The translations under genes and the position numbers were made by a program. A DNA stretch of 64,000 bases from a bacterium. Lineage in GTDB: Bacteria > UBA8248. The stretch's first letter is position 1. Every line of letters begins with the position of its first letter. The stretch lies in contig CBDBZU010000004.1 in NCBI GenBank assembly GCA_965213625.1, positions 2,656,001 through 2,720,000 of the forward strand. Reading direction: 5' to 3'. Under the pieces are notes generated by a model. The model made no database searches and had not been told where the DNA came from. It saw only the letters and a program-made list of their open reading frames with translations. Positions 6,222-50,335 of the stretch are shown one piece after another.

Positions 6222-6267
6222 GAAATGTAAATTTATATAGGAACAATACCAAGGAGGTTGAAACACT

Positions 6268-6738: not shown

Positions 6739-6912
6739 TTTTGTTTAATCAAAATTTGGATAGTGAAGCGTGCTACGTCGGTCAAAACGAGGAACGTGAT
6801 AACGGACTGAAGTGATGCGTTAGCATATTAGGTTCGTGTTCAGAAGCGGCTTCCGCAAACTTAGAAACTCCGCAGTTCAGAGTGATCCCAACATGACTTC
6901 ACAAGCCAGATA

Positions 6913-15790: not shown

Positions 15791-15812
15791 TTGAGTATTC
15801 CTCATCTTCAAA

Positions 15813-27717: not shown

Positions 27718-27727
27718 GGCGGCAGGT

Positions 27728-28150: not shown

Positions 28151-28173
28151 GGGACTTTCTCTAAGCCATCGCC

Positions 28174-28686
28174 TCACTCCGCACCAGGCCAGGCCATGTC
28201 GTGTGCATGGAGTATCTCGCGGAGCTTCGCGACGTTGATGAGCTCCATCGGTGCGCCTTCGGAGTATTTCTGCACCTCTTCGGTGAAGTATCCCGTCGAT
28301 ACCAGGATTCCCTTCAGGGCCCTTTCGGCGCGCACTGTGTCGGAAAGGCCGATGACCCGTATCGAGTTCACAAAGTCGCCCTCCGGCACGAGTATGCCGT
28401 GGATGATGTAGTCGCCCCCGAGGATGGGCGCCGGGTTGTGCGCGAGGATGTCGATTTCCTCCTCGTTGACCCAGTGAACCTCCACGATGCGCATGTTCAT
28501 GCCTTCTAGCAGTTCGATGAGCATGCGCTCGAACACCTGGGGAGACATCTGGCGCAGGGATTCGATTTCCGAGTCGTTTCTGGTCTGCTCGGCATCCGCT
28601 TCGAGCGCGATGTTCGAGGTCGTTCTCTTGACGAACAAAATGGTAATAAATCCCAGGATGAGCGCAACGAAGATGAGTTCTAGCAT
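28174..28686 (-). CDS. Membrane-anchored Mrr-like restriction endonuclease fold protein
   Basis: N-terminal TM; MSPQVFERMLIELL, EIDILA, KGILVSTGYFT, MELIN. Confidence 0.7.
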   Translation of the reverse strand: MLELIFVALILGFITILFVKRTTSNIALEADAEQTRNDSEIESLRQMSPQVFERMLIELLEGMNMRIVEVHWVNEEEIDILAHNPAPILGGDYIIHGILVPEGDFVNSIRVIGLSDTVRAERALKGILVSTGYFTEEVQKYSEGAPMELINVAKLREILHAHDMAWPGAE

Positions 28687-35899: not shown

Positions 35900-36099
35900 C
35901 GGCGTTCTGAGCGGAAATGCCGGGTTTCTAGGCTAAAATCCGGCTGATTATAGGTATGAGCAGGACGGGCGTCAACCGTGTAGCGGGTAGTTTTGACTTA
36001 GCGCAATTACGCCTGAATACGGGGAATATATGCTGAAAACACAAGGTGGTTCAGGGAGATGACTGCGGGCGTGTATATTCCGCGTCGTCTCGCCTCGAG

Positions 36100-39000
36100 C
36101 TATTCATTTTGACTTCTGATGATGCCGGCGAGCTGGCCGATGATGGCGATAGAGATGGTGGGGTGCTCGTGGATCAGTTCGAGAAGAGGTTCTTTCTCGA
36201 TGCCCAGCAGTGAGGTGTCCTTGCTCGCGCGCGCGCCTGCGCTTCTGCCCTCATCGCCGAAGAGCGCGATTTCACCGAACGAGGCCGTGCGGTCGAGGGT
36301 GGCGAGGATCTTCGGCTCCCCGTTCTCCTGGTTGAGAATGATTTCAATTTCCCCGTCCACGATAACGTAGAGGTAATCGCAAGGGTCACCCTGTTCGAAA
36401 AGAACTGTTCCCGACTCTATCTGGATTTCCCTGGAAATGTTGCTCAGTATTTTCAGTTCATCCGCGCTCATCGTTTCGAACATGTTGACGCCTTTTAGAA
36501 ACAGGGCTTTTTCGATTGTCGAGAGCATGAATGTCTCCTGTCCGGATTGAATGTCGCCCTCTGCACCGCGATTGCTACGTTCGCGGCGCACCTGGATGCG
36601 CACCAGTTGATTCTCGTCATTCTCCATGGTTCTCAATAACGACTCAGCATCGTCATCATCTTTCCCGATTATTCTCAATGCGGCAACCGCGGCCTCTCGG
36701 ACGTAGGGGTCGCCCTCTGACGCATGCGCCTTGAATTGCTTGCACCACTCGGGTGTCGTTCCATCCGCTACGCTTTCAAGATGTTTCCCCGCCGCATCGA
36801 CGGCGATGGCCTGAAGCCAGGCGTTCCCCGAAGCCATATATGTCGTCAGCACCTTGTCAATCGATTCTTCAGGCATGTCCCATATTTTCCTGCCTTCGGA
36901 AACTTTATCGGCCGTCGATCTGCCCAGCAGCAGAGGTTCTAAAGCCAGAATCATGAGTCTCGTGTTGCCTGCCGAAGAGAAGTTCGAGAGCGTCTCGATG
37001 GCGATCGCCCTCGATGAGGAGCCGCCCCGGGCGAGAGATTCCGACACGGTGTCCACCGTTTTTTCATCCCCTATTACACCCAACAACTCGAGCAGGACGA
37101 GCTGTCTTTCCTCGACGACGTCTTCGAGCGCTTTTCTCAACATCGTGAAGGCGGATGCGTTTTCCCGGCGTTCGATAACGTGAAGGTGGTTGATGACGTC
37201 ATACACCTCCTTCAGGTGCTCCACGGCGAACCCGGAGAGGGAGTCCACGATTTCCTGAGCGCCCATCTCGCGGGAGCCGTTATTTCCGCTTCTGAACAAT
37301 AGCGGGGCGAGAAACGAAAACATCCCGGAGCCTTCGAGAGACAGGGTTCCTTTTCGCTTCATGTTCTTAAGCGATTCGACGGCCTCTCCTCTCACCAGGG
37401 AATCGACGTCCGAAAGAGCGGCCAGAACGAGGTCGAAGTTTTCACGCGAGCTCTTGTTGCCCAGTTGCCGGACGCCTCTGCGCCTGATGGCCGCACTCTC
37501 ATCCGAGGTGGTCACCCGAAGGACTTCCTCCATGCTCTCCTCGTCGACCCCCTGGTTCGCGGCCAGAACTTCTATCGCCTCCAAAGCGGCTTCACGGACT
37601 TTCTCCTCCTCCTGGTAGAGATAGGGAATCAAGCGTTTAATGAAGCGCGGGTTCTGAAGTTCCCCCATGCACCGCAGGGCGCAGATTCTGGCCGCTGCGT
37701 CTTCTTCGTTCAGCATCCGGTGCAGCGTTTGCAGGCCGTTGGCGAGCCAGAACAGATCGTCGGAGCGGACGAGAAGCTCGACGGCGCGCGCCCTGACTTC
37801 GGGTGAGTCGTCTTCCAGGTTTTCATGCACGAACTCTGCCGTCTCATCGGTCAGCCCGATGCTTTCCGCCGCATCCATGGCGGCGCACTGAAGGACGGAC
37901 TCACCGCAGGTGAGGTGTTGTTTCAGCAAAGGTCGCATTTGCTCGCCCTCTTCGGCTCCTGGAGCCTTGGCGAGAATTTTGAGCAACTCGGCCGCCGCGT
38001 GTCCTTCTCGTCGGGGAATTTCTTCGAGAATGATTTGAAAAGTTTCGCTTCTGCCGCTTTCCGCCATCATCTGCGCGGTGAAGACGCAGAGCTCGTCATC
38101 GCCCTCGCGAATATTTTTCCTGAGTGTCGCCATGCTCTCATCGTCAACCGGGCCGTATCCCTCTTGGGCGTAGCGGAACAGCCCCAGGTTTCTCTCCTCG
38201 AGCATCCGGCGCAGTGCGGCGCTGTATTCATGGCGTACGAAAAACCCTGTGGCCAGATAAGCGAAGGCGATGAACAAGGAGATGAGCGCCACCCAGCCTG
38301 CGCTCAAGGGGAATAGGGCGAGGCCGGTGGGTTTGATGATGAGCAGGGCGACGCCGCTGACGATACTTGCCACTGCCACCACCTGGCCTGCGACGAACGC
38401 GCCCACGCGCGCGCGGATAGAGGGGGAGACGGCATTATAGAGCAGGGCGTTTATGGCGTTTCGAATCGACTCCTGGAGGTTCTTGTTGTTGAAGCGCAGG
38501 AAGACGGCGGAATAAAACCCGGGCGAAATCGCCATGCCCGCGAGACCGATGATGGTCGTAAGCGGATAGAGGAGGTTCGCCGTTCCCAGTCCGAGCCGCT
38601 TGATGATGCGCGGGGTGATGAACGTCTGGACGAGCAGCGAGAAGGCGCTACCGATGGCGGTGAAATACCCGAGGAACGAGGCGAGCTGCGCGCGGTCGGG
38701 AAAAGCCTCGCGGAAGACGAGGCTGTACTGGAAATCCTGGAAACTCCTGAGAATCACCACGATGAAACTGAATAGCGCGAACGCGCAGACGTACCGGTTC
38801 GTCCGCATAAGCGCGAGGTTGCCGCCTTTTGAGGCCGTTTTCTTCGTCGTTTTGCGTTTTTTTGGGCCTGCATCTTCGATCAGGTGGTCCTTGAGCCGCC
38901 ATTCGGCGTATTGGACCACCCCGATACTGACGACGATGGCGCCGATCCACACATAGAGCAGGTTCGAGACGCTCCCCAGTACGGGGATGAGCAGCGGAAT

Positions 39001-39501
39001 GGCCAGACCGCCCAGTATGCCGCCATAGCGGCCCCCTGTCAGGATGATCGGAACCAGCCGCTTGGATTGCAAGACGTCCAAGTACTGGCCGTACAGAGCG
39101 CGGAAATTGTTCGGCAGCATGTTCGTGAACATGACGAACAGCGTGTGGAGAAGCGGGAAAGCGATGGGCATCGCATAGGCGCGGAAATCCGCGAATATGA
39201 GTAGCTTGATACCGAAAACGAGCGCGATGAAAAAAATCAAGACGGTCTTGAACATCGCCGGAATCGAGAGTTTTTCGGTCAGTGATGAGTAGAAAGTGCT
39301 GATGAAGATGATCATCAGGGCGTTGAATATGTACATATAGGGGAGAAAACCCGGGCCGACTTCCGAGAGGAACAACGCTTCGGATACGGTGAGCCCGATG
39401 GAGAACTGGATCCCGATCAGGAAGTAGAAGAAAAAGAACACGGAGAAGACGAGCAACTCCTCTTCCTGGATGTTGAACGCTTTTTTGAGGAGTTTCGCCA
39501 T
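36100..39501 (-). CDS. NTT/MFS-like membrane domain + HEAT repeats + C-terminal cNMP-binding domain fusion
   Basis: About 12 TM (ALFLSEVG..LPYMY, QSKRLVPII), HEAT repeats (EDDSPEVRARA, DVDSLVRGEA, DPYVREAA), cNMP-binding LFEQGD..FGEIAL..RSA. Confidence 0.85.
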   Translation of the reverse strand: MAKLLKKAFNIQEEELLVFSVFFFFYFLIGIQFSIGLTVSEALFLSEVGPGFLPYMYIFNALMIIFISTFYSSLTEKLSIPAMFKTVLIFFIALVFGIKLLIFADFRAYAMPIAFPLLHTLFVMFTNMLPNNFRALYGQYLDVLQSKRLVPIILTGGRYGGILGGLAIPLLIPVLGSVSNLLYVWIGAIVVSIGVVQYAEWRLKDHLIEDAGPKKRKTTKKTASKGGNLALMRTNRYVCAFALFSFIVVILRSFQDFQYSLVFREAFPDRAQLASFLGYFTAIGSAFSLLVQTFITPRIIKRLGLGTANLLYPLTTIIGLAGMAISPGFYSAVFLRFNNKNLQESIRNAINALLYNAVSPSIRARVGAFVAGQVVAVASIVSGVALLIIKPTGLALFPLSAGWVALISLFIAFAYLATGFFVRHEYSAALRRMLEERNLGLFRYAQEGYGPVDDESMATLRKNIREGDDELCVFTAQMMAESGRSETFQIILEEIPRREGHAAAELLKILAKAPGAEEGEQMRPLLKQHLTCGESVLQCAAMDAAESIGLTDETAEFVHENLEDDSPEVRARAVELLVRSDDLFWLANGLQTLHRMLNEEDAAARICALRCMGELQNPRFIKRLIPYLYQEEEKVREAALEAIEVLAANQGVDEESMEEVLRVTTSDESAAIRRRGVRQLGNKSSRENFDLVLAALSDVDSLVRGEAVESLKNMKRKGTLSLEGSGMFSFLAPLLFRSGNNGSREMGAQEIVDSLSGFAVEHLKEVYDVINHLHVIERRENASAFTMLRKALEDVVEERQLVLLELLGVIGDEKTVDTVSESLARGGSSSRAIAIETLSNFSSAGNTRLMILALEPLLLGRSTADKVSEGRKIWDMPEESIDKVLTTYMASGNAWLQAIAVDAAGKHLESVADGTTPEWCKQFKAHASEGDPYVREAAVAALRIIGKDDDDAESLLRTMENDENQLVRIQVRRERSNRGAEGDIQSGQETFMLSTIEKALFLKGVNMFETMSADELKILSNISREIQIESGTVLFEQGDPCDYLYVIVDGEIEIILNQENGEPKILATLDRTASFGEIALFGDEGRSAGARASKDTSLLGIEKEPLLELIHEHPTISIAIIGQLAGIIRSQNE

Positions 39502-39599
39502 ATCGGTCACTTCTAGAGCGCAGGAGGAGGAGCCTTCGCGCGAGTCTTGCCCCGTGAGATGCCTGTAGTGATGACAAACGCGACCCGGCTGATTCTAGC

Positions 39600-41231
39600 T
39601 TAGAGTTTTTGAGATTTCCATGAGTAGAACGACAAGGCGTCCTCCGCCCACTGCGTGCAGTTCCGGCTGAATCTTTCCCAGCGGCTGTTGGCGCATTGGG
39701 CGCGGACGGGGTCTGCGTTGCCCTCGGCGATCAGGCCATTCATCGGCGAGAGGTCGAACTCGGCGCGAACCGGCACCCTGGCGCGCTCCTCGGGCTCGAG
39801 GAGAGTCAAAAAGCGCTCGAAAGCATCAAAGGCGCCGCAAAGCTTCTCGCACAACCGCTCCGCACCTCCCGCATACGCGACCAGGGACGGCGCCAACGGC
39901 GCATAGCGGTTCAGTTCCATGCCTCCTTCCGTGCGGTTCGTGATGCTGTCCACACCGACGACCCCGATGGATTCGTCCGAAAATTCCACAGGGAAGAGCC
40001 TGGCGTAAATCGTTTCTACAACCATTCCCTCACGGCTGAGCCTGAGATGCACGCGAACGCTGAAGAGACCGAAATCGATCCAGCTGCATATGAGTGGCTT
40101 GTAGCGTGCGTCGAATACCTGCTCATAGTTCTCGATGGCGCTCGCCAGGAGGCGAATCGAATCATCCCTGGAGCGGGAAGATTCACGCAGTTCGGATTCG
40201 AGTCTGGGCGCGCAGTTTCTGAGCATTTCCCCCAAAACATCAGGCGAAGCGCCGCCTCTCACCTTTTGGGTCTTGATGTAGGCTTTCGTGGTTGCCGGGC
40301 TGGCCTGGAAGCGATGTACGAGCCAGTCCATCGCTCGGAGGTGATCGGGGTTTTCCGCGTCAAGAGACAAGGGCAGGGGGGTCGCATTGTCCGTCGCGAC
40401 GCCGAGTCTGCTCAGGTCCGGAAGCCCGAACCCGTTGGGGTAGGCGTCCAGCCGGAAACATCCGCGTCCTCCGCCCCCTTCCTGCGGTTTGACGAAGAAA
40501 GTCCGCGCCCCCCATTTCTGCGACAAGGCGGAGGCGGAATCCAGAATGGCGGCGGCTGTGTCCGCAGGCCTTCCTCCGTTTAGTTCCACCACTTCATAGC
40601 CGGCCGTTAGGCGATGCCCGTCCGCTCCGGAAGATTGGGTGTCCTCTCCGTTTCCATTCAGGAGTTCATAGGTGGTTTTCTTGTTGGAAAGCGGCCCGCC
40701 GGGAGCGGTGATAGAGCCCGGCGCCACGACGATTCCCCGCTCCTCCAGAACCCTGGCGAGGGTAGCGTCGTAGAGGCTTCTCTGGGCGGTCTGGCTGATG
40801 ACGAGCAGTTCTTTCGGCGCCTTTGCGGCGCGCGCCAACAGTTCCTCCCGTCTGTTCAGGACCCTGACGGGGATGGACAAACCGAGTTGCTTCAAGTGTG
40901 CCCGCATCACCCGGGCCGTTTCCATGGTGAGGGGCAGTCGGCTCGGGGAGCCGTCCAGCAAAAGGATTTCTCCCGGACGCCGAAATGGTGGAGCGTCTTC
41001 CAGGATGCGCAAGTTTTCGAATCGGGGTTCACGCGACGCCCATCGGTTGAGGCTATCGATCAGGGTTTCGTTCAGATCGCCGTCAGACGAATCGAACTCC
41101 TGGCTCACGCGGTACAGATCCCAGGCGCCGCCGCTTGCATCGGGCGTGAGATTGTAGAGGGAAGGTTCCCGCGCGAGCAGGGGATGGCTTGGTGTTTTTT
41201 GCGAGGTCAAGGTTTCGCTCTTTATGTCCAA
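39600..41231 (-). CDS. Uncharacterised ATP-grasp-like protein
   Basis: NKKTTYELL, FFVKPQEGGGGRG loop, EFDL...AEGN (ExN-like) motif; long inserts. Confidence 0.6.
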   Translation of the reverse strand: MDIKSETLTSQKTPSHPLLAREPSLYNLTPDASGGAWDLYRVSQEFDSSDGDLNETLIDSLNRWASREPRFENLRILEDAPPFRRPGEILLLDGSPSRLPLTMETARVMRAHLKQLGLSIPVRVLNRREELLARAAKAPKELLVISQTAQRSLYDATLARVLEERGIVVAPGSITAPGGPLSNKKTTYELLNGNGEDTQSSGADGHRLTAGYEVVELNGGRPADTAAAILDSASALSQKWGARTFFVKPQEGGGGRGCFRLDAYPNGFGLPDLSRLGVATDNATPLPLSLDAENPDHLRAMDWLVHRFQASPATTKAYIKTQKVRGGASPDVLGEMLRNCAPRLESELRESSRSRDDSIRLLASAIENYEQVFDARYKPLICSWIDFGLFSVRVHLRLSREGMVVETIYARLFPVEFSDESIGVVGVDSITNRTEGGMELNRYAPLAPSLVAYAGGAERLCEKLCGAFDAFERFLTLLEPEERARVPVRAEFDLSPMNGLIAEGNADPVRAQCANSRWERFSRNCTQWAEDALSFYSWKSQKL

Positions 41232-42397
41232 AATACCGATTTGCGCTGGCGCATGAAATGTTTCATCACCCAGTCCGCAATGGCGCCGCCAACCGCGTTG
41301 TCCGTTGCGAGGGAGGAGGGGTTCGGGGCCATGCAGCTAAGAGCGCGTATCCCCGTCATGCGGTATGCCTCCTCGCGTACATGCGCTTCGTTGGCGAGCC
41401 GACCGGAAATGAGCATGTTTTCCTCATCCACCTCCAGGTGGCTTCGTATCCAATGAACGATGAGCGTTGATTCGAGCGTATCACATGCGCAGATAATCAG
41501 ACCTCTTCGCGCAAGCCAGTCTTTGACCCAGGGGTCACTCGCTACGTGTAGACTAGCGTCGGAAGATGGAGAGTCCGCCAATTCCGCGATGACGATTTCC
41601 GCCTTCGCGCTGGCGTGGCGAAGCAGGTTCTGGGCGCATCGTCTGACGCTGTGCATTGAGACGCCACACGTGGAAGCGAGCCCCGCGTCGACGAAATCCC
41701 ACCCAAGTCTCGCGGAATCGAAAAATCCGAGCGGTCTGCCGTAGTTCACCTGCATGAGATCCCGCATGCGTCCCGTTCCGGTCAATTTCACGTATGACAC
41801 GTGGATGCCCGAGGAGTGGAGGGCGGAGGCGAGCGAGGACGCGCAGGTCGTTTTACCCACGTCCATCTCGGAGCCGGTCACCAGTATGATGGGAGCGCAG
41901 GGAATTCCTTCTTCATCCACGTGGCACCGGGTATCGGGGATGACGGGAAGATCGGAAAGCCGGGCGGGTTCGCCTCGCAGCGCGACGCCCCCTTTCACCT
42001 CTATTTTCACGCACGGCGTTTCTGGGTTAGTGCGGACCCCGCAGACGCCGCCGACGTTCAACAGGTCGAGTACGACTCCGGGCTCTGCGGGCGAGTCCGG
42101 TTCGCGCCCCGAAACGCTGCGATTCGCATAGCGCGCACCGATCGTAACGACCATGTTCATTTTTTCCCGCAACTTTATTTCACTCGTCTTCCAGGCGTCT
42201 TCCGTTCCCTGGAGGATTTCGATAGTTTCCAGGCGATTGATGGGCGCATTCTCGGGCGCGGCGACGATTTCACCCAGCGCGATTCCATTTGCGTGGACGG
42301 GCCTGGGGTCAGGCGAGAAATCCGTCTCAAATGAATACGGGCTTTCCTGCGAGAGGAACAATCCTCGGGCGGTGGATGCGAAAAAATCTGTTTTCAA
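41222..42397 (-). CDS. DUF1611-like P-loop protein
   Basis: GARYA, LLNVGGVCG, VTGSEMDVGKTT, KLTGTG..RD, DFVDAGLAST, ELAD. Confidence 0.65.
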   Translation of the reverse strand: MKTDFFASTARGLFLSQESPYSFETDFSPDPRPVHANGIALGEIVAAPENAPINRLETIEILQGTEDAWKTSEIKLREKMNMVVTIGARYANRSVSGREPDSPAEPGVVLDLLNVGGVCGVRTNPETPCVKIEVKGGVALRGEPARLSDLPVIPDTRCHVDEEGIPCAPIILVTGSEMDVGKTTCASSLASALHSSGIHVSYVKLTGTGRMRDLMQVNYGRPLGFFDSARLGWDFVDAGLASTCGVSMHSVRRCAQNLLRHASAKAEIVIAELADSPSSDASLHVASDPWVKDWLARRGLIICACDTLESTLIVHWIRSHLEVDEENMLISGRLANEAHVREEAYRMTGIRALSCMAPNPSSLATDNAVGGAIADWVMKHFMRQRKSVFWT

Positions 42398-42410
42398 TTT
42401 TCACCTTGTC

Positions 42411-43874
42411 CTAAGCAGGAGAAAGAGCGAGCCGGCGCGTGAAAGTATCTATCATTTCCCGGGCGGCAGGGGATATCTGCTTTTCTCCCCCTTCATAGAT
42501 GGATGAAACGCCCTCGAGCTTACAGAACGCTCCCCTCGGTTCTACTATGGTTCCTTTCGCCGGAGGAGAGCAAGTGACGAGAACCTCATTGTGGCCTTGA
42601 ACGTCACTTAGTCGATAACCCCGCCGGATGAATTCAGGCATTCCATTTTGGATGATATAGATGCCGGGAGCGAGTGAATGGCCGATTTTCATTCGTGAAG
42701 CGCTCGTGTTTCGAATCAAGAGCTGGAAGCCTGATAAATCCGGTCGGCTGAGTTCGGCGAGCAAATCCCGGTGTGCGTCGAGAGCGTCGCCAGACTCCAG
42801 GAATTCGGCCAGATGCCAGAAGGTGGTAGTGGGAGCGCTGCTCTGGATTTCTTCGAGTTCGGTCATCAGTTGCGTGGTTCCCAGCACGCGCGGGTTGAGT
42901 TCGAGGGTATAGGGTTCGTCCTCATGGACGATAAAATCGACGCCGTAAATTCCCCGGTAGCCCGCCCCGGCTATCCACTCGCCGATTTTCAGGGTGAATG
43001 CCTCTATTTTCCGGCGGCTTTCCTCGGATACCAGCCGATACGCCGAATAGTCGCTGCCGGCGTAATCGAAGCGGTGCATGGAACATCCGGGGATTCCCGT
43101 GAACATCACCGAAGGGTGGGACATCCAGGGTTTTCCGTCATAAATCAACCCAGCCGTGCCGACGGCGGGACCGCTAAGGAACGTGCTCGCGATCACAGGC
43201 GCATCGGGCCCGAGTTTTTGGGTGAGTTCGTCACGTTTACGGGAAAGCGCCTCGGCTGAGTCGATGAAGTGCGTCTGATTGCCCGAGGAGCCGATTTTTT
43301 CCGAAATAATCATAACGGGTCCGAATTGTTCAAGCTGTTTGGACCCGAGTTCGCCCAGAGCCACCACGTCGCCCGGTGGGACGCTGAACCCCGCTTCGAT
43401 TGCCTGGCGACGGAAAGATACCTTGTCGTCGAATCTCGTCTTGATTTCCACCGGATTCGCCAGGATGCGTAGCCTCCCATCCGCTTCTTTGGCGAGTTTC
43501 CCCAGAAATTCCGTGGAGCGGTAGGGGATGACGTACCGTGGAGCTTCCCCTTGTGAGAGAAATTCCCGAATTTGCGAACCCAACGCTCCCTCGTACGCTT
43601 CAACGAGCGATGAGTGCGTCCACACGATGCGCTTGTTTTGCCCGCGCTCCACGGCGAAATAGCGCAGACGCCTGTCCCATTCAGGCCCGTCGAGTCCGTA
43701 GTCGCAGGCGATGAGGAAATCGAGGGGAACGATGTTCTCCATGGTGATCGAATCGACCGCGCGCAGTCCTTGGAAGCCGAACGTCGATCCGTCCGGAACG
43801 GCAGAGGTTAATACTTCATTGAAATAATTTTTATTATAGGAGGGCAAGGAGAGAATTCCTTCACCTAGAATCAT
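42411..43874 (-). CDS. ATP-grasp ligase
   Basis: DDKVSFRR, GSSGNQT, GYRGIYGVDFIV, ELNPR. Confidence 0.8.
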   Translation of the reverse strand: MILGEGILSLPSYNKNYFNEVLTSAVPDGSTFGFQGLRAVDSITMENIVPLDFLIACDYGLDGPEWDRRLRYFAVERGQNKRIVWTHSSLVEAYEGALGSQIREFLSQGEAPRYVIPYRSTEFLGKLAKEADGRLRILANPVEIKTRFDDKVSFRRQAIEAGFSVPPGDVVALGELGSKQLEQFGPVMIISEKIGSSGNQTHFIDSAEALSRKRDELTQKLGPDAPVIASTFLSGPAVGTAGLIYDGKPWMSHPSVMFTGIPGCSMHRFDYAGSDYSAYRLVSEESRRKIEAFTLKIGEWIAGAGYRGIYGVDFIVHEDEPYTLELNPRVLGTTQLMTELEEIQSSAPTTTFWHLAEFLESGDALDAHRDLLAELSRPDLSGFQLLIRNTSASRMKIGHSLAPGIYIIQNGMPEFIRRGYRLSDVQGHNEVLVTCSPPAKGTIVEPRGAFCKLEGVSSIYEGGEKQISPAAREMIDTFTRRLALSPA

Positions 43875-44065
43875 TACAAATGTCCAAGCGGCTCGGAAAT
43901 CAAAAACACGCGATTTTAATTCGATAGCCTCACGGATATCAACATAATTCGACGTTTCGGCAAACTATTATTTCCCTCAGTGCACTTCTGCAACTCACCG
44001 TGCGCTATGCTAGGATACGGAGCGTCTCGACCCCTATTACCGCCATCAGGCGCGGGAACTGGTGA

Positions 44066-44998
44066 ATGTCCGAAGATAGAATTATTTCTGAATCGGCTAT
44101 TGATTCGGATGAAAACCCCATGATGTCGGACTCGGAACTCAGGTGGGAGAAATTCCGCCGGAGCATGATGCGCGCCAAACCGGCGATGCTCGGTGGCGTT
44201 TTTCTCATTTTGCTGGTTGTCTTTTCTCTTTCGGCTCCTCTCATCGCGCCGCAAAACCCGAGTAAGGTGGACGTGAACCTGCGTCTGAAGCCTCCCGTTT
44301 GGGTGGAGGGAGGAAGCGCGAGCTATATGCTGGGTACCGACGCGCTGGGCCGGGATATTCTGAGCCGGCTCATTTATGGGGGCCGCGTCTCCATTCTGGT
44401 GGGCTTGAGTTCGGTGGTGATTTCGGGGGTAATCGGCATCGTTCTCGGTCTTGTTTCGGGCTTTTTCGGCGGTAAAATTGACGATCTCATCAGCGGGTTT
44501 TCCGAAATTCAACTGGCGTTTCCCTTTATTTTGCTGGCGATCACGATCATGGCGGTCATCGGGCCGGGTCTGCTCAACATCATTATCGTACTGGGGATCA
44601 GTCGGTGGGTGGCGTATGGCCGCGTGGTCAGGGGCCAGGTCATCTCGATAAGGGAGCGCGAATTTGTGGAGGCCACCCGCGCCCTGGGCTATCCCCTGTA
44701 CCGCATATTGTTCATGCAGATTTTGCCGAACACCCTCTCGCCTTTGATCGTCATCGCCACCTTCGCCGTGGCGGGGAACATAATTTCCGAATCCTCGCTA
44801 AGTTTTCTGGGACTCGGCGTTCCGCCTTCGGTCGTCACCTGGGGCGGTATGTTGTCCGAAGGGCGCGAATATCTGCGCGGCGCATGGTGGATGGCGACTT
44901 TTCCGGGCCTTGCCATCATGGCGACGGTTTTGAGCATCAACCTCATCGGCGACTGGCTGCGGGATTACATGGACCCCCGCCTCGGCGATGATATGTAG
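44066..44998 (+). CDS. Peptide/nickel ABC transporter permease (DppC-like)
   Basis: LGTDALGRD, EFVEATRALG, ESSLSFLGLG, GDWLRD..DP. Confidence 0.93.
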   Translation: MSEDRIISESAIDSDENPMMSDSELRWEKFRRSMMRAKPAMLGGVFLILLVVFSLSAPLIAPQNPSKVDVNLRLKPPVWVEGGSASYMLGTDALGRDILSRLIYGGRVSILVGLSSVVISGVIGIVLGLVSGFFGGKIDDLISGFSEIQLAFPFILLAITIMAVIGPGLLNIIIVLGISRWVAYGRVVRGQVISIREREFVEATRALGYPLYRILFMQILPNTLSPLIVIATFAVAGNIISESSLSFLGLGVPPSVVTWGGMLSEGREYLRGAWWMATFPGLAIMATVLSINLIGDWLRDYMDPRLGDDM

Positions 44999-45028
44999 GC
45001 GTTTTGCTTTTTTGAAGGAAATTTACGC

Positions 45029-46576
45029 ATGAAAAGGGCCTTGTTGTGTGGATTTTGCCTGCTGCTCGTGGCGCTCTCCGCCTGCGGCCGCGAAGCGAAA
45101 AAAGGGCCTTTCACGGTTATCCTCTCGGTGGAGGCCAATACGCTCGACCCTCATTTCGCCACCGCCACCATCGAGTGGAGCATCTTGATGAACATGTTCG
45201 ACCCGCTCATCGAGCGGCGTGGCGATATGACGCTGGGGCCTGCGCTGGCCGAGCGTTGGGAGGTGGATGATACAAAGAAGGTCTGGACGTTTCATCTGCG
45301 CAAGGGTGTGAAGTTTCATAACGGTGAGCCGTTCGATGCAGAATCCGTGCGTTACACCTTCGAGCGGATGCGGGATAAGAAGCTGAAGCCGCGAACCACG
45401 GTGTACAGGCGGATTTTCCTCGACAGGGTGGAGAAAGTGGATTCCCACACCGTGAAGATTCACACGAAGCGTCCGGTCGCCACCCTGCCGGTTTGGATGG
45501 TGAACGCTTTCATGCTGCCGCCGAAGTATTATTCGTCGACTCCGCCCAAGGAATTGTTGAAAAAACCTGTGGGAACGGGGCCTTATAAGCTGGTGAAATG
45601 GATCAAGGACGACCGCATCGAGATGGTGGCCAACAAGGGTTGGTGGCGGGGTGAGCCTGCGATAAAAAAGGTGTTCTGGAGGCCGGTGGCCGAGGCATCG
45701 GCCCGCATTGCGGAACTAGAGACGGGCGGGGCCGATATCATCATGAACATCTCGCCCGATCAGTCGAAAACCATTCTGGCGAGAGGAGAGGGCCTCCAGC
45801 TCAAGGGGACTCGGGGAGGCCGCAGGATTTATCTGGGGATTCGCACGGATCACGGGGTGCTGGGCGATGTGCGCATCCGCCGGGCGCTGAATCATGCGAT
45901 TGATTTCGAGGCCATCGCAAAAAACGTTTTTCTGGGCCATGGCTCACGCATGAAGAGCGTCGTGAACCCCCCGAACGCCGCCCCGGGCATGAAGGCGTAC
46001 GCCTATGATCCCCATAAAGCGAAAGCGCTCCTCGCCGAGGCCGGCCTGAAGGACACGGATGGGGACGGCGTGCTGGAAATGAATGGAAAACCATTTGAGA
46101 TAAAACTTGAAGTGCCTGCATCCAGGTATTTGAAAGGAAAAGAGATATCTGAATTTTTGGCTGCATATTTCCGCGCCGTGGGCGTCCACGTGGAGGTGAT
46201 TCCGCTGGAGTGGTCCGTTTTCCTCGCAAGAAGAAGAAAAAAGACGCTGGCGCCTTTGTATTTTCACGGGTTCAGTTCCGCCTTCAACGAAGAGCTCGAC
46301 CTGGGCGTGTTGAGACCCAACCTTTTCGCAAACCTCACCGCCTGGCGGAACCGGGAGTTTATCCAAAATTACAAAAGATTGGGCCAGACGTTCGATCCCG
46401 CTGAGCGCAGGCGGATCAGCTACCGGATGCAGCGCATTGTTCGCGCGGAAAGCCCTTGGGTGTTTTTGTGGAACCAGTATGATTTTTTCGGGTTAAGCGC
46501 GAGAACGCAGTGGACGCCGAGGCCGGATGAGAGAATCTACCTGCCCACGATTCGGTTGAAAGAAGCGAAACCATAA
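45029..46576 (+). CDS. Peptide ABC transporter substrate-binding lipoprotein (family 5)
   Basis: Lipobox LSAC, LRKGVKFHNG, PVGTGPY, RIRRALNHAID. Confidence 0.93.
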   Translation: MKRALLCGFCLLLVALSACGREAKKGPFTVILSVEANTLDPHFATATIEWSILMNMFDPLIERRGDMTLGPALAERWEVDDTKKVWTFHLRKGVKFHNGEPFDAESVRYTFERMRDKKLKPRTTVYRRIFLDRVEKVDSHTVKIHTKRPVATLPVWMVNAFMLPPKYYSSTPPKELLKKPVGTGPYKLVKWIKDDRIEMVANKGWWRGEPAIKKVFWRPVAEASARIAELETGGADIIMNISPDQSKTILARGEGLQLKGTRGGRRIYLGIRTDHGVLGDVRIRRALNHAIDFEAIAKNVFLGHGSRMKSVVNPPNAAPGMKAYAYDPHKAKALLAEAGLKDTDGDGVLEMNGKPFEIKLEVPASRYLKGKEISEFLAAYFRAVGVHVEVIPLEWSVFLARRRKKTLAPLYFHGFSSAFNEELDLGVLRPNLFANLTAWRNREFIQNYKRLGQTFDPAERRRISYRMQRIVRAESPWVFLWNQYDFFGLSARTQWTPRPDERIYLPTIRLKEAKP

Positions 46577-46577
46577 A

Positions 46578-47495
46578 ATGGGTGCTTATCTATTCAGACG
46601 TTTTCTCCGGGCCATCGTGGTCGTGGCCGGCGTGAGTTTCATCTCGTTCGCCGTATTGTTCCTGTCTGGCGACCCGACCGACACCATGGTGGGCGAGGAC
46701 TGGACGGTTGAGGAGGTCCAGAAACTCCGCGAGGACATGGGATTGGACAAGCCCTGGTTCGTGCAATACGGACGATACGTGGGCAGGGCAGTGCAGGGAG
46801 ATTTTGGAGAAAGCCTGCGATACCGCCAGCCCGCGTTCGAGCTCATCATGGAGCGTCTGCCCGCGACTCTCGAACTCGCCCTCGTGGCGCTGGTTCTCTC
46901 GATTATCCTGGCGTTTCCGCTAGGTGTCGTAAGCGCGACGCAGCGTGGCTCTCCATATGACCACGGGGGGATGCTTTTCGCGCTCCTGGGGCAATCTATG
47001 CCGGTTTTCTGGCTTGGCTTGATGCTGATCCTCATCTTCGGGGTGAGTTTGAGATGGCTGCCCGTCAGCGGTAGAAGCGGCTTGGAACATCTCGTACTGC
47101 CCGCCATCGCGCTCTCTACTTACTCGATCGCGAGAAACACGCGGGTAGTCCGAAGCTCCATGCTGGAAGTGCTCCGGCATGAATACGTGAAGACCGCCCG
47201 CGCGAAGGGGCTCTCCGAGTGGATCGTTATCAACCTGCACGTGCTCAGAAACTCCATGATCCCGGTCATCACGATAATCGGCCTGGAATTCGGGCATCTG
47301 CTGGGGGGTGCGGTAATCGTCGAGACGATTTTCTCCTGGCCGGGCGTGGGGAGGCTTCTCATTCAGGCCGTCTACGCCAAGGATTTCCCCCTGGTTCAGG
47401 CTTCGGTGACCATAACCGCCCTGATTTTCGTGTCTTTGAATCTCATTGTTGATCTGATGTATTCCGTCCTCGATCCCAGGGTGAGACTCCATTGA
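46578..47495 (+). CDS. Peptide ABC transporter permease (DppB-like)
   Basis: GDFGES, PVFWLG, YVKTARAKG, ETIFSWPG, DPR. Confidence 0.93.
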   Translation: MGAYLFRRFLRAIVVVAGVSFISFAVLFLSGDPTDTMVGEDWTVEEVQKLREDMGLDKPWFVQYGRYVGRAVQGDFGESLRYRQPAFELIMERLPATLELALVALVLSIILAFPLGVVSATQRGSPYDHGGMLFALLGQSMPVFWLGLMLILIFGVSLRWLPVSGRSGLEHLVLPAIALSTYSIARNTRVVRSSMLEVLRHEYVKTARAKGLSEWIVINLHVLRNSMIPVITIIGLEFGHLLGGAVIVETIFSWPGVGRLLIQAVYAKDFPLVQASVTITALIFVSLNLIVDLMYSVLDPRVRLH

Positions 47496-48430
47496 GCCGA
47501 ACCGCGTATTTCTGGACGCCCGAATCGCTCCTGCACGACAATGGCCGTCATGTGGAAAACGTCGAGCGCGCCAGACGCTTGACGTCCGAGAGGGTTCTCC
47601 CGCAAGTCCCATTGCTCATACACATGGAGAGAAAGCACCATGACGCTAGTGAGTGGGTTTTGCGGGTGCATGAGGAAGAACACCACCACTTTGTGCGCGA
47701 GGCGTGTGCGAGCGGCAGGTGCATTCTGGATGGCGGAGATACGCAGGCCGGTCCGGGAAGTTATGAGGCTGCGCTCGCTTCTGTGGATGCGGCCTTGAGC
47801 GCTGCGGACGCCGTCGTCTCCAGGGAGGTCGACAACGCCTTTTGCGCCGCCAGGCCGCCGGGCCACCATGCCTTGCCGTTTCAGTCGATGGGGTTTTGCC
47901 TGTTCGCCACAGCCTCAATACTGGTGCGGTATCTGCAGGAACAACATGGCCTCCAGAAAGTCGCCGTGGTGGATTGGGACGTTCATCATGGTAACGGAAC
48001 CCAGCATATCTTCTGGAGCGACCCGGACGTGTTATTCGTCTCCCTGCACCAGCATCCCCATTATCCCGGCACGGGGCTGGCTGGCGAAATCGGGGAAGGG
48101 GCGGGCGAGGGCAAGACGCTCAACATTCCCGTCGCGGCGGGAACCTCTGAGGAAGCGTATCTGGCGAAATTTGAGGAAAGCGTCATCCCCGCCATAGAGG
48201 CGCACGGCCCGGAAGCGATAGTCGTATCGGCGGGTTTCGACGCGCATCGAGACGACCCGCTCGGGGGGCTGATGATCACGGAAGCCGGTTTCGCCCAACT
48301 GACCCGGTGGGTGAAGGCGCTTGCGGAGGACCTCTGCGCGGGACGCCTCGTCTGCCTTCTCGAGGGCGGGTACAATCTCGACGCCCTCGAACGCTCCGTC
48401 GCCGCACACTTACGAGAACTCTCGGCATAA
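47492..48430 (+). CDS. Histone deacetylase family amidohydrolase
   Basis: RPPGHHA, GFC, DWDVHHGNGTQ, SAGFDAH..DP, LEGGY; TTGA overlap with the permease. Confidence 0.93.
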   Translation: MSRTAYFWTPESLLHDNGRHVENVERARRLTSERVLPQVPLLIHMERKHHDASEWVLRVHEEEHHHFVREACASGRCILDGGDTQAGPGSYEAALASVDAALSAADAVVSREVDNAFCAARPPGHHALPFQSMGFCLFATASILVRYLQEQHGLQKVAVVDWDVHHGNGTQHIFWSDPDVLFVSLHQHPHYPGTGLAGEIGEGAGEGKTLNIPVAAGTSEEAYLAKFEESVIPAIEAHGPEAIVVSAGFDAHRDDPLGGLMITEAGFAQLTRWVKALAEDLCAGRLVCLLEGGYNLDALERSVAAHLRELSA

Positions 48431-48470
48431 AGGATTTGTATGTTGGCGTGATGAATATTACGAAATAATT

Positions 48471-48486
48471 AGTTGACTGACTAACT
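48471..48486. promoter_or_regulatory. Imperfect palindrome AGTTGACTGACTAACT, candidate TetR operator
   Basis: In the AT-rich region upstream of the TetR gene. Confidence 0.4.
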
Positions 48487-48554
48487 TAAATATTTTATAT
48501 TTTTCTTGTTTGTTGTTTCTCACGAAGCGAATTTTCCATTTCCGGAGGCTGGTG

Positions 48555-49184
48555 ATGGTGGAAACAGCAATGGCGACGCCCAAAGGCCCCAAGGCCTCCG
48601 CGACGAAACAAAAAATCATAGAATCGGCCGCGCGGCTCATCTATCACAGAGGGTTTCACGCAACTTCGCTCGATATGGTGGCGCAATCCGCCCGGGTCAA
48701 CCGGGGGAGTCTGTATTATTTTTTTCGCTCCAAGAAGAACCTGGCGCTCGCCGTAATCGATCACTACGAATCGCTTCTTCATCAAAACTACCTCTCCTCC
48801 TCATTTGATATAGAGGCGAGGGGACGTCAGAAAATAAGACGTTTGGCGGAAGCCTACGCCCGCATGCCGATTCAGGATTCGCCGTGCTGCGGATGCCCGA
48901 TCGGAAATCTCTCTATCGAACTCAGCGCACTGGACGAAGAGATGCGCAAACGGCTGAAACAGGTGTGGGATGGGGTTTTTGCGAACATCGCTCGCGTATT
49001 GGCTCAAGCGCAAATAGAAGGGGATCTCCCAGGGGATGCCGACCCCCTCGTATACGCGCGTTCTTTTTTCTCACAAATTCAGGGCGCGCATATTATTGCG
49101 AGATGTTCACAGGATGAGCCGTCTTTACGTGAGGATTGCGAGCGTGCTTTTATGAGCCTGCCTTGGGTCCGGAAAGGGGAGTAG
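48555..49184 (+). CDS. TetR/AcrR family regulator (NemR-like C-terminal domain)
   Basis: RGFHATS..VNRGSLYYFFRSK HTH; CCGCPIGN; GGAGG RBS. Confidence 0.9.
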   Translation: MVETAMATPKGPKASATKQKIIESAARLIYHRGFHATSLDMVAQSARVNRGSLYYFFRSKKNLALAVIDHYESLLHQNYLSSSFDIEARGRQKIRRLAEAYARMPIQDSPCCGCPIGNLSIELSALDEEMRKRLKQVWDGVFANIARVLAQAQIEGDLPGDADPLVYARSFFSQIQGAHIIARCSQDEPSLREDCERAFMSLPWVRKGE

Positions 49185-49186
49185 AA

Positions 49187-50335
49187 ATGAACGGGGGAGG
49201 TCACGAATTCAGAGGCGGAAGCCCCGTGCATTCCCGCAGATGGCGATGGGTTATCTGGTGCGTTTTCTTGCTGGGCGCCGGCCTCGCATGGCTGTTTGCA
49301 GAGCGTTATTTTGGTGGTGTGCATGATCCGAACGCCGTACCCCGCGTCGTCACACCGCGCGGCGACCTCGCCGCCGAGGAAAAATCCAACATAGAGCTTT
49401 TCCGTCTCTCCTCTCCGTCTGTCGTCTACATCACGAGGCTGGCGATGAGGCGCGACAGGTTCAGTCTCAACATGTTCGAGATTCCCCAGGGCACGGGCTC
49501 GGGTTTCGTCTGGAACCATCAGGGGCACATCATCACGAATTTTCACGTCGTCCAGGGAACGAGTTCCTTGCGCGTCACCCTGGCGGATCATTCCGAGTGG
49601 GACGCGCGCGTGGTGGGAGTATCGCCCGATCAGGATTTGGCGGTGTTGTTCATCAATGCGCCGAGAACCCGCTTGAAGCCGATCGCCATCGGCCAGTCCG
49701 ATAATCTGCAGGTGGGTCAGAGGGTGTTCGCCATAGGCAATCCCTTCGGGTTGGATCAGACGCTCACTACGGGGATCATCAGCGCGCTGGGGCGCGAGAT
49801 AGACGGCGTATCGGGCCGGAAGATCAGCGGCGTCATCCAGACCGACGCCGCTATAAATCCGGGCAATTCCGGGGGGCCTCTTCTGGACAGCGCCGGGCGG
49901 CTGATAGGTGTCAATACGGCCATTTTCAGTCCTTCCGGTTCCAACGCGGGTATTGGCTTTGCGGTTCCCGTGGATACCGTGAACAGGGTGGCGCCTCAAC
50001 TGATTCGCCACGGACGCGTCATCAGGCCGGGTCTCGGCATCCACGTGGCCGACAGGGGAACGGCGGAGCGCCTGGGAATACGAGGGGTGTTGATCCTTCG
50101 CGTGCAGAAAGGCAGCGCAGCTGAAACCGTAGGGTTGCGCGGCACGGGCAGAGGCCAGCGAGGCCGGCTCGTGCTGGGGGACGTAATCGTTGGCGTGGGA
50201 GGGAAATCCGTTGCCTCGCTCGATGAGTTGTTGGACGTGCTCGATGAACACAAGGTGGGCGACGTCGTGGAAGTCCACCTGATGCGCGACGGGAACAGGA
50301 TGAGCGTGAGCGTAAAACTTCAGGCCCTGAGCTAG
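49187..50335 (+). CDS. HtrA/DegP-like serine protease with one PDZ domain
   Basis: N-terminal TM, GSGF, TNFHV, DLAV, INPGNSGGP, C-terminal PDZ. Confidence 0.93.
   Translation: MNGGGHEFRGGSPVHSRRWRWVIWCVFLLGAGLAWLFAERYFGGVHDPNAVPRVVTPRGDLAAEEKSNIELFRLSSPSVVYITRLAMRRDRFSLNMFEIPQGTGSGFVWNHQGHIITNFHVVQGTSSLRVTLADHSEWDARVVGVSPDQDLAVLFINAPRTRLKPIAIGQSDNLQVGQRVFAIGNPFGLDQTLTTGIISALGREIDGVSGRKISGVIQTDAAINPGNSGGPLLDSAGRLIGVNTAIFSPSGSNAGIGFAVPVDTVNRVAPQLIRHGRVIRPGLGIHVADRGTAERLGIRGVLILRVQKGSAAETVGLRGTGRGQRGRLVLGDVIVGVGGKSVASLDELLDVLDEHKVGDVVEVHLMRDGNRMSVSVKLQALS

Follow-up and report, generated by a model that had tools for sequence, protein, structure and literature searches.

Within a 64-kb stretch of a bacterial genome (contig CBDBZU010000004.1, positions 2,656,001 to 2,720,000; hereafter the window), whose proteins find their best named matches in metagenome-assembled genomes (MAGs) of Nitrospinae/Nitrospinota and which is assigned to that phylum accordingly, a minus-strand operon carries two genes that are kept side by side across several phyla. 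These are ligase 1, predicted from its sequence to be an ATP-grasp enzyme, and a second gene, ligase 2 or X543, whose product is very probably a divergent ATP-grasp protein. The locus core is this conserved two-ligase module. The function we favour for it, with confidence divided about equally for and against, is that of a two-step ATP-dependent ligase module making a small peptide or amino-acid conjugate, with hydrolase and transporter partners that differ from lineage to lineage. A preliminary description of the same DNA had drawn the boundaries more widely, combining the two ligases with a P-loop protein, a nucleotide-transporter fusion protein, a divergently transcribed peptide importer and a histone deacetylase (HDAC)-family gene in one amide-ligation and deacylation system.

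The ligase pair is conserved across phyla

Related loci were collected by a one-genome-per-species scan with a 9-sequence X543 alignment, which yielded 43 loci (L001–L043). L001–L020, in which the identity is 53–87%, are from Nitrospinota, and the 23 other loci (L021–L043, 31–36% identity) are labelled Omnitrophota, Elusimicrobia/Elusimicrobiota, Planctomycetia, KSB1, Deltaproteobacteria, "archaeon" or unclassified, all of these being the depositors' MAG labels. A ligase 1 homologue neighbours the X543 homologue on its upstream side and on the same strand at 43 of the 43 loci, an adjacency far beyond chance. Each of L021–L043 has exactly one ligase 1 and one X543 homologue (2128 open reading frames (ORFs) of L021–L048 were searched), and outside Nitrospinota the ligase 1 homologue directly abuts X543, with gaps of −191 to 217 nt if the second gene is taken as its longest ORF. 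By this measure the second ligase starts within 70 nt of the stop of the first, or overlaps it, in 18 of these 23 loci, with an overlap of exactly 4 nt in 6.

The remaining genes of the preliminary description behave differently. Homologues of the P-loop protein, the NTT-HEAT-cNMP protein, the Dpp importer and the HDAC protein occur in 0 of the 23 non-Nitrospinota loci. In the Nitrospinota loci with enough flank the whole of the approximately 21 kb fetched, from RelA to CopA, is syntenic, so the co-occurrence of nine genes there carries no specific information. The idea of nine genes acting as one system is not supported by this comparison: all of them co-occur only in the phylum in which the entire region is syntenic. 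The neighbourhood analysis proposed for homologues of the two ligases thus upheld the pair itself but not the genes grouped around it, most of which are probably just neighbours. The preliminary description had recognised no named pathway of this composition, and a literature search likewise turned up no paper describing the pair or joining DUF1704/MATCAP/QEGLA proteins with ATP-grasp operons, an earlier survey mention (Iyer et al. 2009) being possible.

Fold assignment of the two ligases

The window ORFs scanned (52 across the 64 kb) were searched against Pfam, and proteins of the locus also against NCBIfam and PDB sequence models. Ligase 1 matches the Pfam family ATP-grasp_3 (PF02655) with 30.2 bits over residues 150–333, above the cutoff of 23.2, which places it in the ATP-grasp superfamily and bears out the earlier assignment. 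Its NCBIfam matches are all below cutoff (PRK06524 at 4e-17, BesA at 3.7e-5 and MfnD at 0.004), the BesA score being 22.7 bits against a cutoff of 750, and this sub-threshold likeness is to ligases of free amino acids and amines (BesA, MfnD). A profile of the ligase 1 family (A3) matches CPS, pyruvate carboxylase and biotin carboxylase chains of the PDB at E values of 3.6e-9 and weaker, and the BesA chain 8yi6 at 4.2e-5. In an alignment of 21 sequences K151 and S196-S197-G198 are invariant, as are N327, P328 and R329, and E325 is nearly so; by comparison with the general ATP-grasp motifs we take K151 and E325-x-N327 to be ATP/Mg ligands. From its sequence, ligase 1 is predicted to be an ATP-grasp enzyme of the biotin-carboxylase/L-amino-acid-ligase-like branch.

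The product of the second gene, X543, matches no Pfam, NCBIfam or PDB sequence model, and its relatives number only 38 cluster representatives of 1.84 billion at E <= 1e-3. In the 9-sequence alignment a Lys and Gly-rich stretch (FFVKPxEGGGGxGGFR) is conserved, with K248 invariant, and towards the C terminus E503-G-N505-A-D507 and R510 are invariant as well. This order, a Lys and Gly-rich loop followed by E-x-N, is the canonical ATP-grasp order, and K248, the Gly-rich loop and E503-x-N505 presumably have the roles that the corresponding motifs have elsewhere in the superfamily. Comparisons of X543 by hhalign with 66 biotin-carboxylase-like and 3 GshB-like proteins, together with hmmsearch, gave nothing significant; the GshB hhalign control was powerless, the bona fide ATP-grasp ligase 1 family (A3) likewise reaching only 3%. 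These non-significant runs put the Gly-rich loop of X543 on the KPxxGSGG stretch of GshB.

Evidence for the fold of X543 comes from stored ESM Atlas models of two homologues (P0130 and P0132, both with 32% identity to the window protein); the models have a predicted template modelling score (pTM) of 0.76 and 0.73 and a predicted local distance difference test score (pLDDT) of 0.68 and 0.65, respectively. Besides their own cluster and two unnamed clusters of about 485 aa, the structural neighbours listed for these models are all ATP-grasp clusters. The models match Ddl with a TM score of 0.78 by target (286 residues aligned, query residues 74–518), RimK/GSH-S with 0.78–0.79 and YheC/YheD with 0.51–0.53 by query; in a feature search with an X543 homologue all 10 best family-bearing matches belonged to one clan, and some of the ATP-grasp neighbour clusters contain a minor TTL share (14–54% of members). 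As judged from these models, X543 is very probably a divergent RimK/YheCD/Ddl-shaped ATP-grasp protein with large insertions. Its earlier description as ATP-grasp-like agrees with the homologue models and the motifs, although sequence models give it no support.

Two other possibilities for the pair were considered. X543 gave no match in 72,556 plasmids, and carriage on a mobile element was rejected. A known anti-phage defence system was rejected as well: neither of the ligases, nor the P-loop protein, the HDAC protein or a MATCAP neighbour matches a PADLOC model, and only the cNMP and HEAT domains of the 1136-aa fusion protein do so, as generic domains of defence proteins.

Partner genes in other lineages and on plasmids

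We examined the neighbours of the 23 non-Nitrospinota pairs by running Pfam on 217 ORFs. A MATCAP-family gene (PF08014, E 1e-42 to 1e-50) lies directly upstream of the pair in 15 of the 19 loci in which this could be assessed; it is absent from beside the pair in L023, L029, L039 and L041, and contig ends prevented assessment in L025, L028, L031 and L040. The MATCAP neighbours match the NCBI "QEGLA motif protein" model below its cutoff, and all 16 of the proteins aligned retain H-E-x-x-x-H and the EGLA Glu. In L032 the MATCAP gene is split into two ORFs (L032:7174-8265), which points to a frameshift or pseudogene or to an assembly error.

CstA follows the pair directly in 9 of the 23 loci. An SPL-like radical SAM gene stands upstream in 9 Omnitrophota-type loci and a nitroreductase-family gene in 6, of which the only one tested, in L036, is SagB-like (140 bits against a cutoff of 78). 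In two loci six same-strand genes form a block (L030:4993-13473 and L036:5124-13278), in the order SPL-like radical SAM, SagB-like, MATCAP, ligase 1, ligase 2 and CstA; both blocks are bracketed by tRNA genes, which precede the SPL-like gene on one side and stand close behind CstA on the other. The Elusimicrobiota-type loci have other companions: CobA/BtuR follows the pair in three (L021, L027 and L043), a DUF2092 protein of about 710 aa is present in five, with an AhpC/TSA domain (L027, L037) or a ResA-like domain (L021) where one was detected, and ABC importers are found there too. In L037, labelled Deltaproteobacteria, an ORF of 146 aa with an ArfB-like RF-1 domain sits between MATCAP and ligase 1 (L037:2199-2639). 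A carrier or precursor peptide of the LysW type or of the kind known from ribosomally synthesised and post-translationally modified peptides (RiPPs) was sought downstream of X543 and rejected, there being no conserved small ORF and a single Zn-ribbon ORF, in L026. An Rfam search of 8 related loci found tRNAs only.

Genes connected with nickel recur at a few places. NikR is directly upstream of MATCAP in L021 (L021:7018-7434) and L043 (L043:1-417), and a LarC nickel-insertion gene adjoins the pair in L023 (L023:253-1509). With the 345-bit nickel-permease score of the window importer, described below, these genes hint at a nickel link, in few and probably related loci.

Plasmids carry comparable sets built from other parts. 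In 3 of the 4 regions examined, plasmid MATCAP/QEGLA genes are followed by a GshB-type ATP-grasp gene (GSH-S_ATP 1.4e-48; the regions are L045:4463-8207, L046:3266-6207, L047:2448-6210 and L044:5122-7113, from Rhizobiaceae, "Roseateles" and Vibrio), and a gene for N-formylglutamate amidohydrolase precedes MATCAP/QEGLA in 2 regions and is fused to MATCAP in Vibrio. This amidohydrolase/MATCAP/GshB-like set seems to be a separate, so far uncharacterised cassette. Distant plasmid relatives of ligase 1, annotated "biotin carboxylase" and PRK06524-like, share 23–27% identity over 53–67% of the length, and in both regions examined (L048:6659-9132 and L049:6635-9112, from Rhizobium and "Roseateles" plasmids) their genes are followed by a C45 peptidase gene. 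Both regions are amino-acid/amine catabolic clusters: one of them also encodes an amidase, a Dpp-type ABC importer and a decarboxylase of the Orn/Lys/Arg type, the other an agmatinase, dehydrogenases and a racemase; an aldehyde dehydrogenase and a D-amino-acid dehydrogenase are among the dehydrogenases of the C45-peptidase regions. A link between the plasmid "biotin carboxylase" genes and the QEGLA cassette was rejected, the two lying about 260 kb apart on the Roseateles plasmid. The combination of ligase, hydrolase and transporter is a recurring pattern with non-orthologous parts: MATCAP and CstA in Omnitrophota, and beside the distant relatives a C45 peptidase, joined in one of the two regions by a Dpp-type importer. 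The earlier idea that the locus makes, imports and recycles a small conjugate is therefore plausible by analogy, through the recurrence of the pattern, but the parts that recur are not those of the window.

Organisation of the locus in the window

The genes and promoter-like sites of the locus are listed in Table 1. Inspection of the ORFs and of the junction sequences confirmed all coordinates, gaps, overlaps and strands given in the preliminary description. A gap of 13 nt separates ligase 1 from the gene for the 391-aa P-loop protein, whose TTG start is preceded at 5 nt by a Shine-Dalgarno-like AAGGTG box. This gene overlaps the X543 gene by 10 nt, and a spacer of 89 nt leads from X543 to the 1136-aa gene. 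On the other side, the ligase operon diverges from dppC across a spacer of 191 nt; the stop of dppB and the start of the HDAC gene share a TTGA overlap, so that the HDAC gene is translationally coupled to the permease gene.

Table 1. Position of the ligase operon, its neighbours and promoter-like sites in the window
Feature	Positions	Strand	Remarks
Ligase 1, ATP-grasp	42411-43874	minus	487 aa; first gene of the operon
P-loop protein	41222-42397	minus	391 aa; TTG start; between the two ligases
Ligase 2 (X543)	39600-41231	minus	543 aa
NTT-HEAT-cNBD fusion transporter	36100-39510	minus	1136 aa; downstream neighbour of the ligase operon
dppC-like permease	44066-44998	plus	OppC_N + BPD_transp_1
dppA-like family-5 binding protein	45029-46576	plus	SBP_bac_5 7.6e-86
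dppB-like permease	46578-47495	plus	BPD_transp_1_N + BPD_transp_1
HDAC-fold gene	47492-48430	plus	312 aa; Hist_deacetyl 3.5e-90; TTG start
Promoter-like site of the ligase operon	43913-43942	minus	TTGATA-18-TAAAAT; 10/12 consensus matches
Promoter-like box before the NTT gene	39592-39620	minus	TGGAAA-17-TAGAAT; 9/12 consensus; straddles the X543 stop

In an alignment of the window with 18 Nitrospinota loci the TTGATA ... TA[AG]AAT boxes before ligase 1 are largely kept, and the block ATCCTAGCATAGCG on the dppC side of the divergent spacer is also conserved. The TAGAAT box just beyond the X543 stop is kept in most of 19 aligned Nitrospinota loci, and the spacer between X543 and the NTT gene measures 65–89 nt in 18 of these 19. 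The intergenic gaps, the X543-NTT spacer included, contain no terminator-like site. Given the promoter-like sites and gaps free of terminator-like sites, the genes of ligase 1, the P-loop protein and X543 very likely form one transcript; the NTT gene may be reached by read-through as well as from a promoter of its own.

The gene between the two ligases had been called DUF1611-like and compared with DgcN, which has acetyltransferase activity. Its weak matches (AAA_26 at 7.9e-4, DUF1611_C at 4.2e-3 and bioD at 5.7e-5) cover residues 168–212 only and are all below cutoffs. DUF1611_C scores 17 bits against a cutoff of 25 (residues 168–211, profile positions 12–55 of 201) and the DUF1611 N-terminal domain is not found at E <= 10, which leaves the protein outside the DUF1611/DgcN family; TIGR00347 (BioD) scores 23.3 bits over 40 residues against a cutoff of 83.3, which leaves it outside BioD too. 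A profile of its family (A4) matches BioD chains at 9.3e-7, over residues 168–226 only, and of 18 family members 17 match DUF1611_C (best 1.5e-4), 12 AAA_26 and 10 CbiA at E <= 0.01. G175, G181 and K182 of the GSxMDVGKT stretch are invariant in the family. The protein consists of about 165 N-terminal residues without a family and a P-loop domain at about residues 168–391. It has 59 homologues, every named source of which is Nitrospinae, Nitrospinota or Tectomicrobia and one of which bears a precomputed PF07755 label, and there is no homologue among the 2128 ORFs of loci L021–L048.

Because the matches are limited to the P-loop stretch and are all sub-cutoff, the 391-aa protein is classed by sequence as a BioD/CobQ/DUF1611-type P-loop protein, with no demonstrable membership of DUF1611. 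Its gene is a Nitrospinota/Tectomicrobia-only insert between the ligases. Of the label "DUF1611-like" the weak P-loop matches survive, but the family threshold is not reached and nothing beyond the P-loop stretch is alike, so that the analogy with DgcN is weak. The GSxMDVGKT P-loop and the K-x-T-G stretch that follows it align with BioD; unlike BioD, a single-domain protein of about 225 aa, the window protein has an additional N-domain of 165 aa and matches over only about 60 residues, and, unlike in BioD and DgcN loci, its gene has no biotin or dgcA context. PMC12363236 describes dgcN as the key gene of a D-Glu racemisation pathway.

The 1136-aa protein encoded downstream of X543 matches HEAT_2 (2.5e-26) and cNMP_binding (1.3e-20) in Pfam; it has no match to TLC at E <= 10, and its NTT region gives only MFS_1, at E 0.0033. 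Relatives of residues 1–470 carry PF03219 and are named as Npt1/Npt2 family nucleotide transporters. P0269, with 43% identity (7e-113), carries PF03219, as do flavobacterial Npt1/Npt2 proteins, and the PF03219-bearing relatives also have HEAT_2 and often cNMP_binding. Since these relatives carry PF03219, the NTT part is assigned by transitive homology, and the NTT-HEAT-cNMP fusion proposed earlier holds, directly for its HEAT_2 and cNMP domains and through relatives for NTT. NTT-HEAT-cNBD fusions are described by Major et al. 2017 (PMC5381601) as monophyletic, predominantly bacterial and functionally uncharacterised. They have the same three-domain order as the window protein, whose NTT part is too divergent for Pfam TLC, and the name Nitrospinota has 0 occurrences in the text of that paper. 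An ATG at 39501, 9 nt inside the annotated GTG (39510), is kept in all aligned Nitrospinota loci while the preceding bases vary, and the annotated GTG start is probably wrong and the ATG true. The gene is a downstream neighbour that could, by analogy only, belong to the ligase unit.

The importer across the divergent spacer is an incomplete set of the Dpp/Opp/Nik (PepT-family) type, consisting of a C permease, a binding protein and a B permease and falling short of assignment to the family. Its best NCBIfam rows are all sub-cutoff (Opp4C 297 bits and, for the binding protein, NikA as the best row with 180 bits and CntA with 3e-40); the dppB-like permease scores 345 bits against the Opp2B nickel permease, for which the cutoff is 350, and oligopeptide rows score similarly. 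No ABC_tran domain or ABC ATPase gene is present among the 52 ORFs of the window, and the ATPases may be encoded elsewhere. DppCAB is probably a divergent neighbour and a separate uptake module. The protein encoded behind it matches Hist_deacetyl from residue 20 to 309 (profile positions 1–297 of 298) and is predicted to be a class II HDAC-fold amidohydrolase; the solved chains closest to it are HDAC6 catalytic domains, bacterial HDAH proteins and a 315-aa protein of Burkholderia (5ji5, 6.3e-64). In 3 of the 3 plasmid regions examined (L050–L052, from Shinella, Roseovarius and Pseudorhizobium plasmids) ABC-importer operons include class II HDAC homologues that share about 40% identity with it, and these three regions contain no ligase homologues. 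This suggests that HDAC and importer form a general "import and deacylate" module that stands alone, and the window HDAC is better grouped with the importer than with the ligases.

Several features lie farther from the operon. Just downstream of the NTT gene, at 32951-35899, is a gene whose 982-aa product, a multihaem cytochrome of the c type, contains repeated haem domains of the SoxX-like, class I and cbb3 types; the promoter-like site of this gene (35975-35947) is the strongest of the region, with 11/12 matches, so the gene is probably a separate transcription unit. Positions 4001–8000 have a G+C content of 0.47–0.49, against about 0.55–0.65 elsewhere, and hold a small gene with a RelA/SpoT-synthetase domain (4338-5441) and several family-less ORFs; this part of the window may have been acquired as an island. 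Genes of mobile and defence type are scattered at 14130-15811, 19889-21337 and 27533-28686, namely an AbiEii/DUF6088 pair, a DDE transposase (DUF772) and adjoining genes for a PIN-domain protein and an Mrr-like nuclease. The DDE transposase adjoins a D-Ala-D-Ala ligase gene (21715-22809).

Proposed function and alternative explanations

ATP-grasp enzymes activate a carboxylate with ATP as an acyl phosphate, which is then coupled to an amine. The scheme we propose builds on the observed gene order, conservation of the pair, fold class and partner statistics. With ATP, each ligase would convert a carboxylate into its acyl phosphate and transfer the acyl group to an amine; as two different ligases are kept in strict tandem, we read them as carrying out two successive couplings, whereby two amide bonds would be formed and the product would be a short peptide or an amine conjugated to an amino acid. 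In Omnitrophota, Elusimicrobiota and others the C-terminal residue would be trimmed off or recycled by the MATCAP zinc carboxypeptidase, and transport of the product or of its precursors would fall to CstA, a peptide/pyruvate transporter, or to another carrier. The P-loop enzyme of Nitrospinota and Tectomicrobia may add or replace a step, perhaps a third nucleotide-dependent one (an amidation, a ring closure or an acyl transfer, for example), and the NTT-HEAT-cNBD protein, the Dpp importer and the HDAC-fold hydrolase could, purely by analogy, serve as the transporters and the hydrolase. What we infer in this scheme is that the enzymes are catalytic and act in sequence, what kind of product they make and what each neighbour does.

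Several results weigh against this interpretation. No member of the X543 family (0 of 16) matches any Pfam ATP-grasp model at E <= 10, profiles of the family (A1 and A5) match nothing in the PDB, and hhalign relates X543 to ligase 1 with a probability of 14–33% in the N-domain only; the models that argue for the fold are of homologues and not of the window protein, and have moderate confidence (pLDDT 0.65–0.68). For every member of both ligase families activity, substrate and product are matters of prediction. The pairwise distances of ligase 1 and X543 correlate strongly (Pearson 0.94 over 22 non-Nitrospinota loci, reached by 0 of 1000 permutations), which shows co-inheritance and not interaction, and is expected of any co-inherited genes. 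An Rfam search of positions 35500-49500 at E <= 1 found no riboswitch or other family and so gives no clue to a ligand. There is no MATCAP-like sequence in the window (best tblastn E 1.1) or in the flanks of L001–L020 up to 10 kb per side (E <= 1e-3), so the Nitrospinota version may work differently. Finally, proteins are the substrates of RimK and YheC/D, of the enzymes behind the minor TTL share and of the one MATCAP characterised so far, and this speaks for a different reading of the pair.

That reading, the main rival, which we consider unlikely, is tagging of a protein or peptide at its C terminus (or on an acidic side chain), with the ligases as writers and MATCAP as the eraser, which in Nitrospinota would be encoded elsewhere or replaced. 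The X543 homologues have RimK, Ddl and YheC/D clusters as structural and feature neighbours, the last of them spore-coat associated, and in some clusters TTL makes up 14–54% of the members; MATCAP with intact catalytic motifs stands directly upstream in 15 of 19 assessable loci; and the ArfB-like RF-1 domain ORF of L037 lies between MATCAP and ligase 1. The only characterised MATCAP removes a C-terminal tyrosine from a protein, and this action on a protein C terminus also argues for tagging. A precedent is provided by RimK, which works with the dedicated protease RimB (PMC11957791). Set against this, no candidate target gene is conserved beside the pair and the small downstream ORFs are not conserved, the transporters beside the pair, CstA at 9 of the 23 loci and ABC importers at those of the Elusimicrobiota type, would be odd partners, ligase 1 resembles ligases of free substrates (BesA, MfnD, biotin-carboxylase-like), and neither window ligase has a TTL match in Pfam. 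A bolder version, to which we give still less credence, would make MATCAP and the ligases a bacterial write/erase system for C-terminal tags, a counterpart and possibly the source of the logic of tubulin tyrosination, in which Nitrospinota have swapped the eraser for the P-loop enzyme and tied the module to a cyclic-nucleotide-sensing transporter. A transient amino-acid "handle", for example glutamate, is the use to which gamma-glutamylation is put in the Puu pathway and by BesA; such a handle would be attached to an amine or amino acid, the conjugate modified and the handle removed by a hydrolase, which in Nitrospinota could be the HDAC-fold enzyme. BesA and MfnD are indeed among the sub-threshold matches of ligase 1, in Omnitrophota-type loci MATCAP and the ligases share their strand block with upstream genes for an SPL-like radical SAM protein (9 loci) and a nitroreductase-family protein (6 loci), and the distant plasmid relatives sit with decarboxylase, agmatinase, aldehyde dehydrogenase, D-amino-acid dehydrogenase and C45 hydrolase genes. 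One handle, however, needs fewer than two ligases; the modifying enzymes are absent from the Elusimicrobiota-type and Nitrospinota loci and are thus not conserved across phyla, and the plasmid relatives are just 23–27% identical over 53–67% of the length. We regard the handle as improbable.

The full nine-gene system, which would make, import and recycle an N-acylated peptide or conjugate under cyclic-nucleotide control, is in our estimate just as improbable as the handle. Its attraction is that the ligase operon and dppC diverge from one 191-nt spacer with conserved blocks on both sides, that the genes stay together in Nitrospinota loci wherever the fetched contig reaches, down to 53% identity (L019), and that hydrolase, ligases and transporter recur together elsewhere with other parts. 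The synteny of about 21 kb in Nitrospinota, however, also takes in the unrelated RelA, EndoV, cytochrome c, TetR, HtrA and CopA genes, the outer genes are absent from 23 of the 23 loci of other phyla, a promoter-like box of its own precedes the NTT gene, whose product is one of a widespread, independent family of fusions, and operons of HDAC and ABC importer stand alone in the 3 regions examined. Most improbable of all would be a metal-binding peptide (a nickel or cobalt metallophore) or a glutathione-like redox peptide, handled by a Nik/Cnt-like ABC system. Such a product would suit NikR before MATCAP (L021, L043), LarC nearby (L023) and CobA/BtuR after the pair (L021, L027, L043), the scores of the window importer (permease 345 bits against Opp2B with its cutoff of 350, NikA 180 bits, CntA 3e-40), the DUF2092 proteins with AhpC/TSA (L027, L037) or ResA-like (L021) domains after the pair, and the pairing of plasmid MATCAP with GshB-like ligases. 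But NikR is found in only 2 of the 23 loci, with the same gene order and probably from one lineage, all the NCBIfam rows are sub-cutoff and oligopeptide rows score similarly, and metal-chelate genes such as opine or nicotianamine synthases are lacking.

Comparison with known systems

The system of RimK and RimB, which glutamylates ribosomal protein S6, shares with the locus a RimK-like-shaped ATP-grasp enzyme, a peptidase gene and the stepwise ATP-dependent addition of amino acids. It differs in that neither window ligase matches the RimK family of Pfam, that two different ligases take the place of one, and that RimB is a retropepsin whereas the peptidase partner of the pair is a MATCAP-type zinc enzyme. 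TTL/TTLL enzymes act on tubulin, and MATCAP is a tubulin detyrosinase. The tubulin tyrosination cycle formed by TTL and MATCAP likewise couples an HExxxH...E carboxypeptidase to an ATP-grasp enzyme, adding and removing a C-terminal residue; unlike in that cycle, the partners described here form part of a single bacterial operon, neither ligase is a TTL by Pfam, and the window is without MATCAP. The FGase/QEGLA/GshB-like cassette of Rhizobiaceae plasmids also has a MATCAP-family gene directly beside an ATP-grasp ligase, but it has one ligase, of the GshB type, a MATCAP with an N-terminal extension of 260–320 aa, and no homologue of X543 or ligase 1. The ATP-grasp ligases BesA and MfnD and those of the BacD type take free amino acids or amines and join them, and BesA and MfnD are among the sub-threshold matches of ligase 1; ligase 1 scores far below their cutoffs (BesA 22.7 against 750 bits) and has about 150 extra C-terminal residues, and the characterised pathways of this type use one such ligase and not a pair.

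Significance

Joining an ATP-grasp ligase with a partner peptidase is a known way to make small peptides or to tag proteins. The locus is a variant of ATP-grasp ligase operons with partner hydrolases, one in which a ligase pair is kept across several phyla. It is unusual in that the X543 family, with its few cluster representatives, has no database model, that the pair stays together across several deep-branching and mostly uncultured phyla, and that a bacterial relative of the tubulin detyrosinase MATCAP usually accompanies it. The comparison across phyla also indicates that synteny conserved within one phylum had overstated the size of the "system". Identifying the product would give functions to X543, to the PRK06524-like ligases and to the bacterial MATCAP/QEGLA proteins together, and this product could be a new small peptide, with a redox, osmotic, metal-binding or signalling role, in marine nitrite oxidisers and Omnitrophota.

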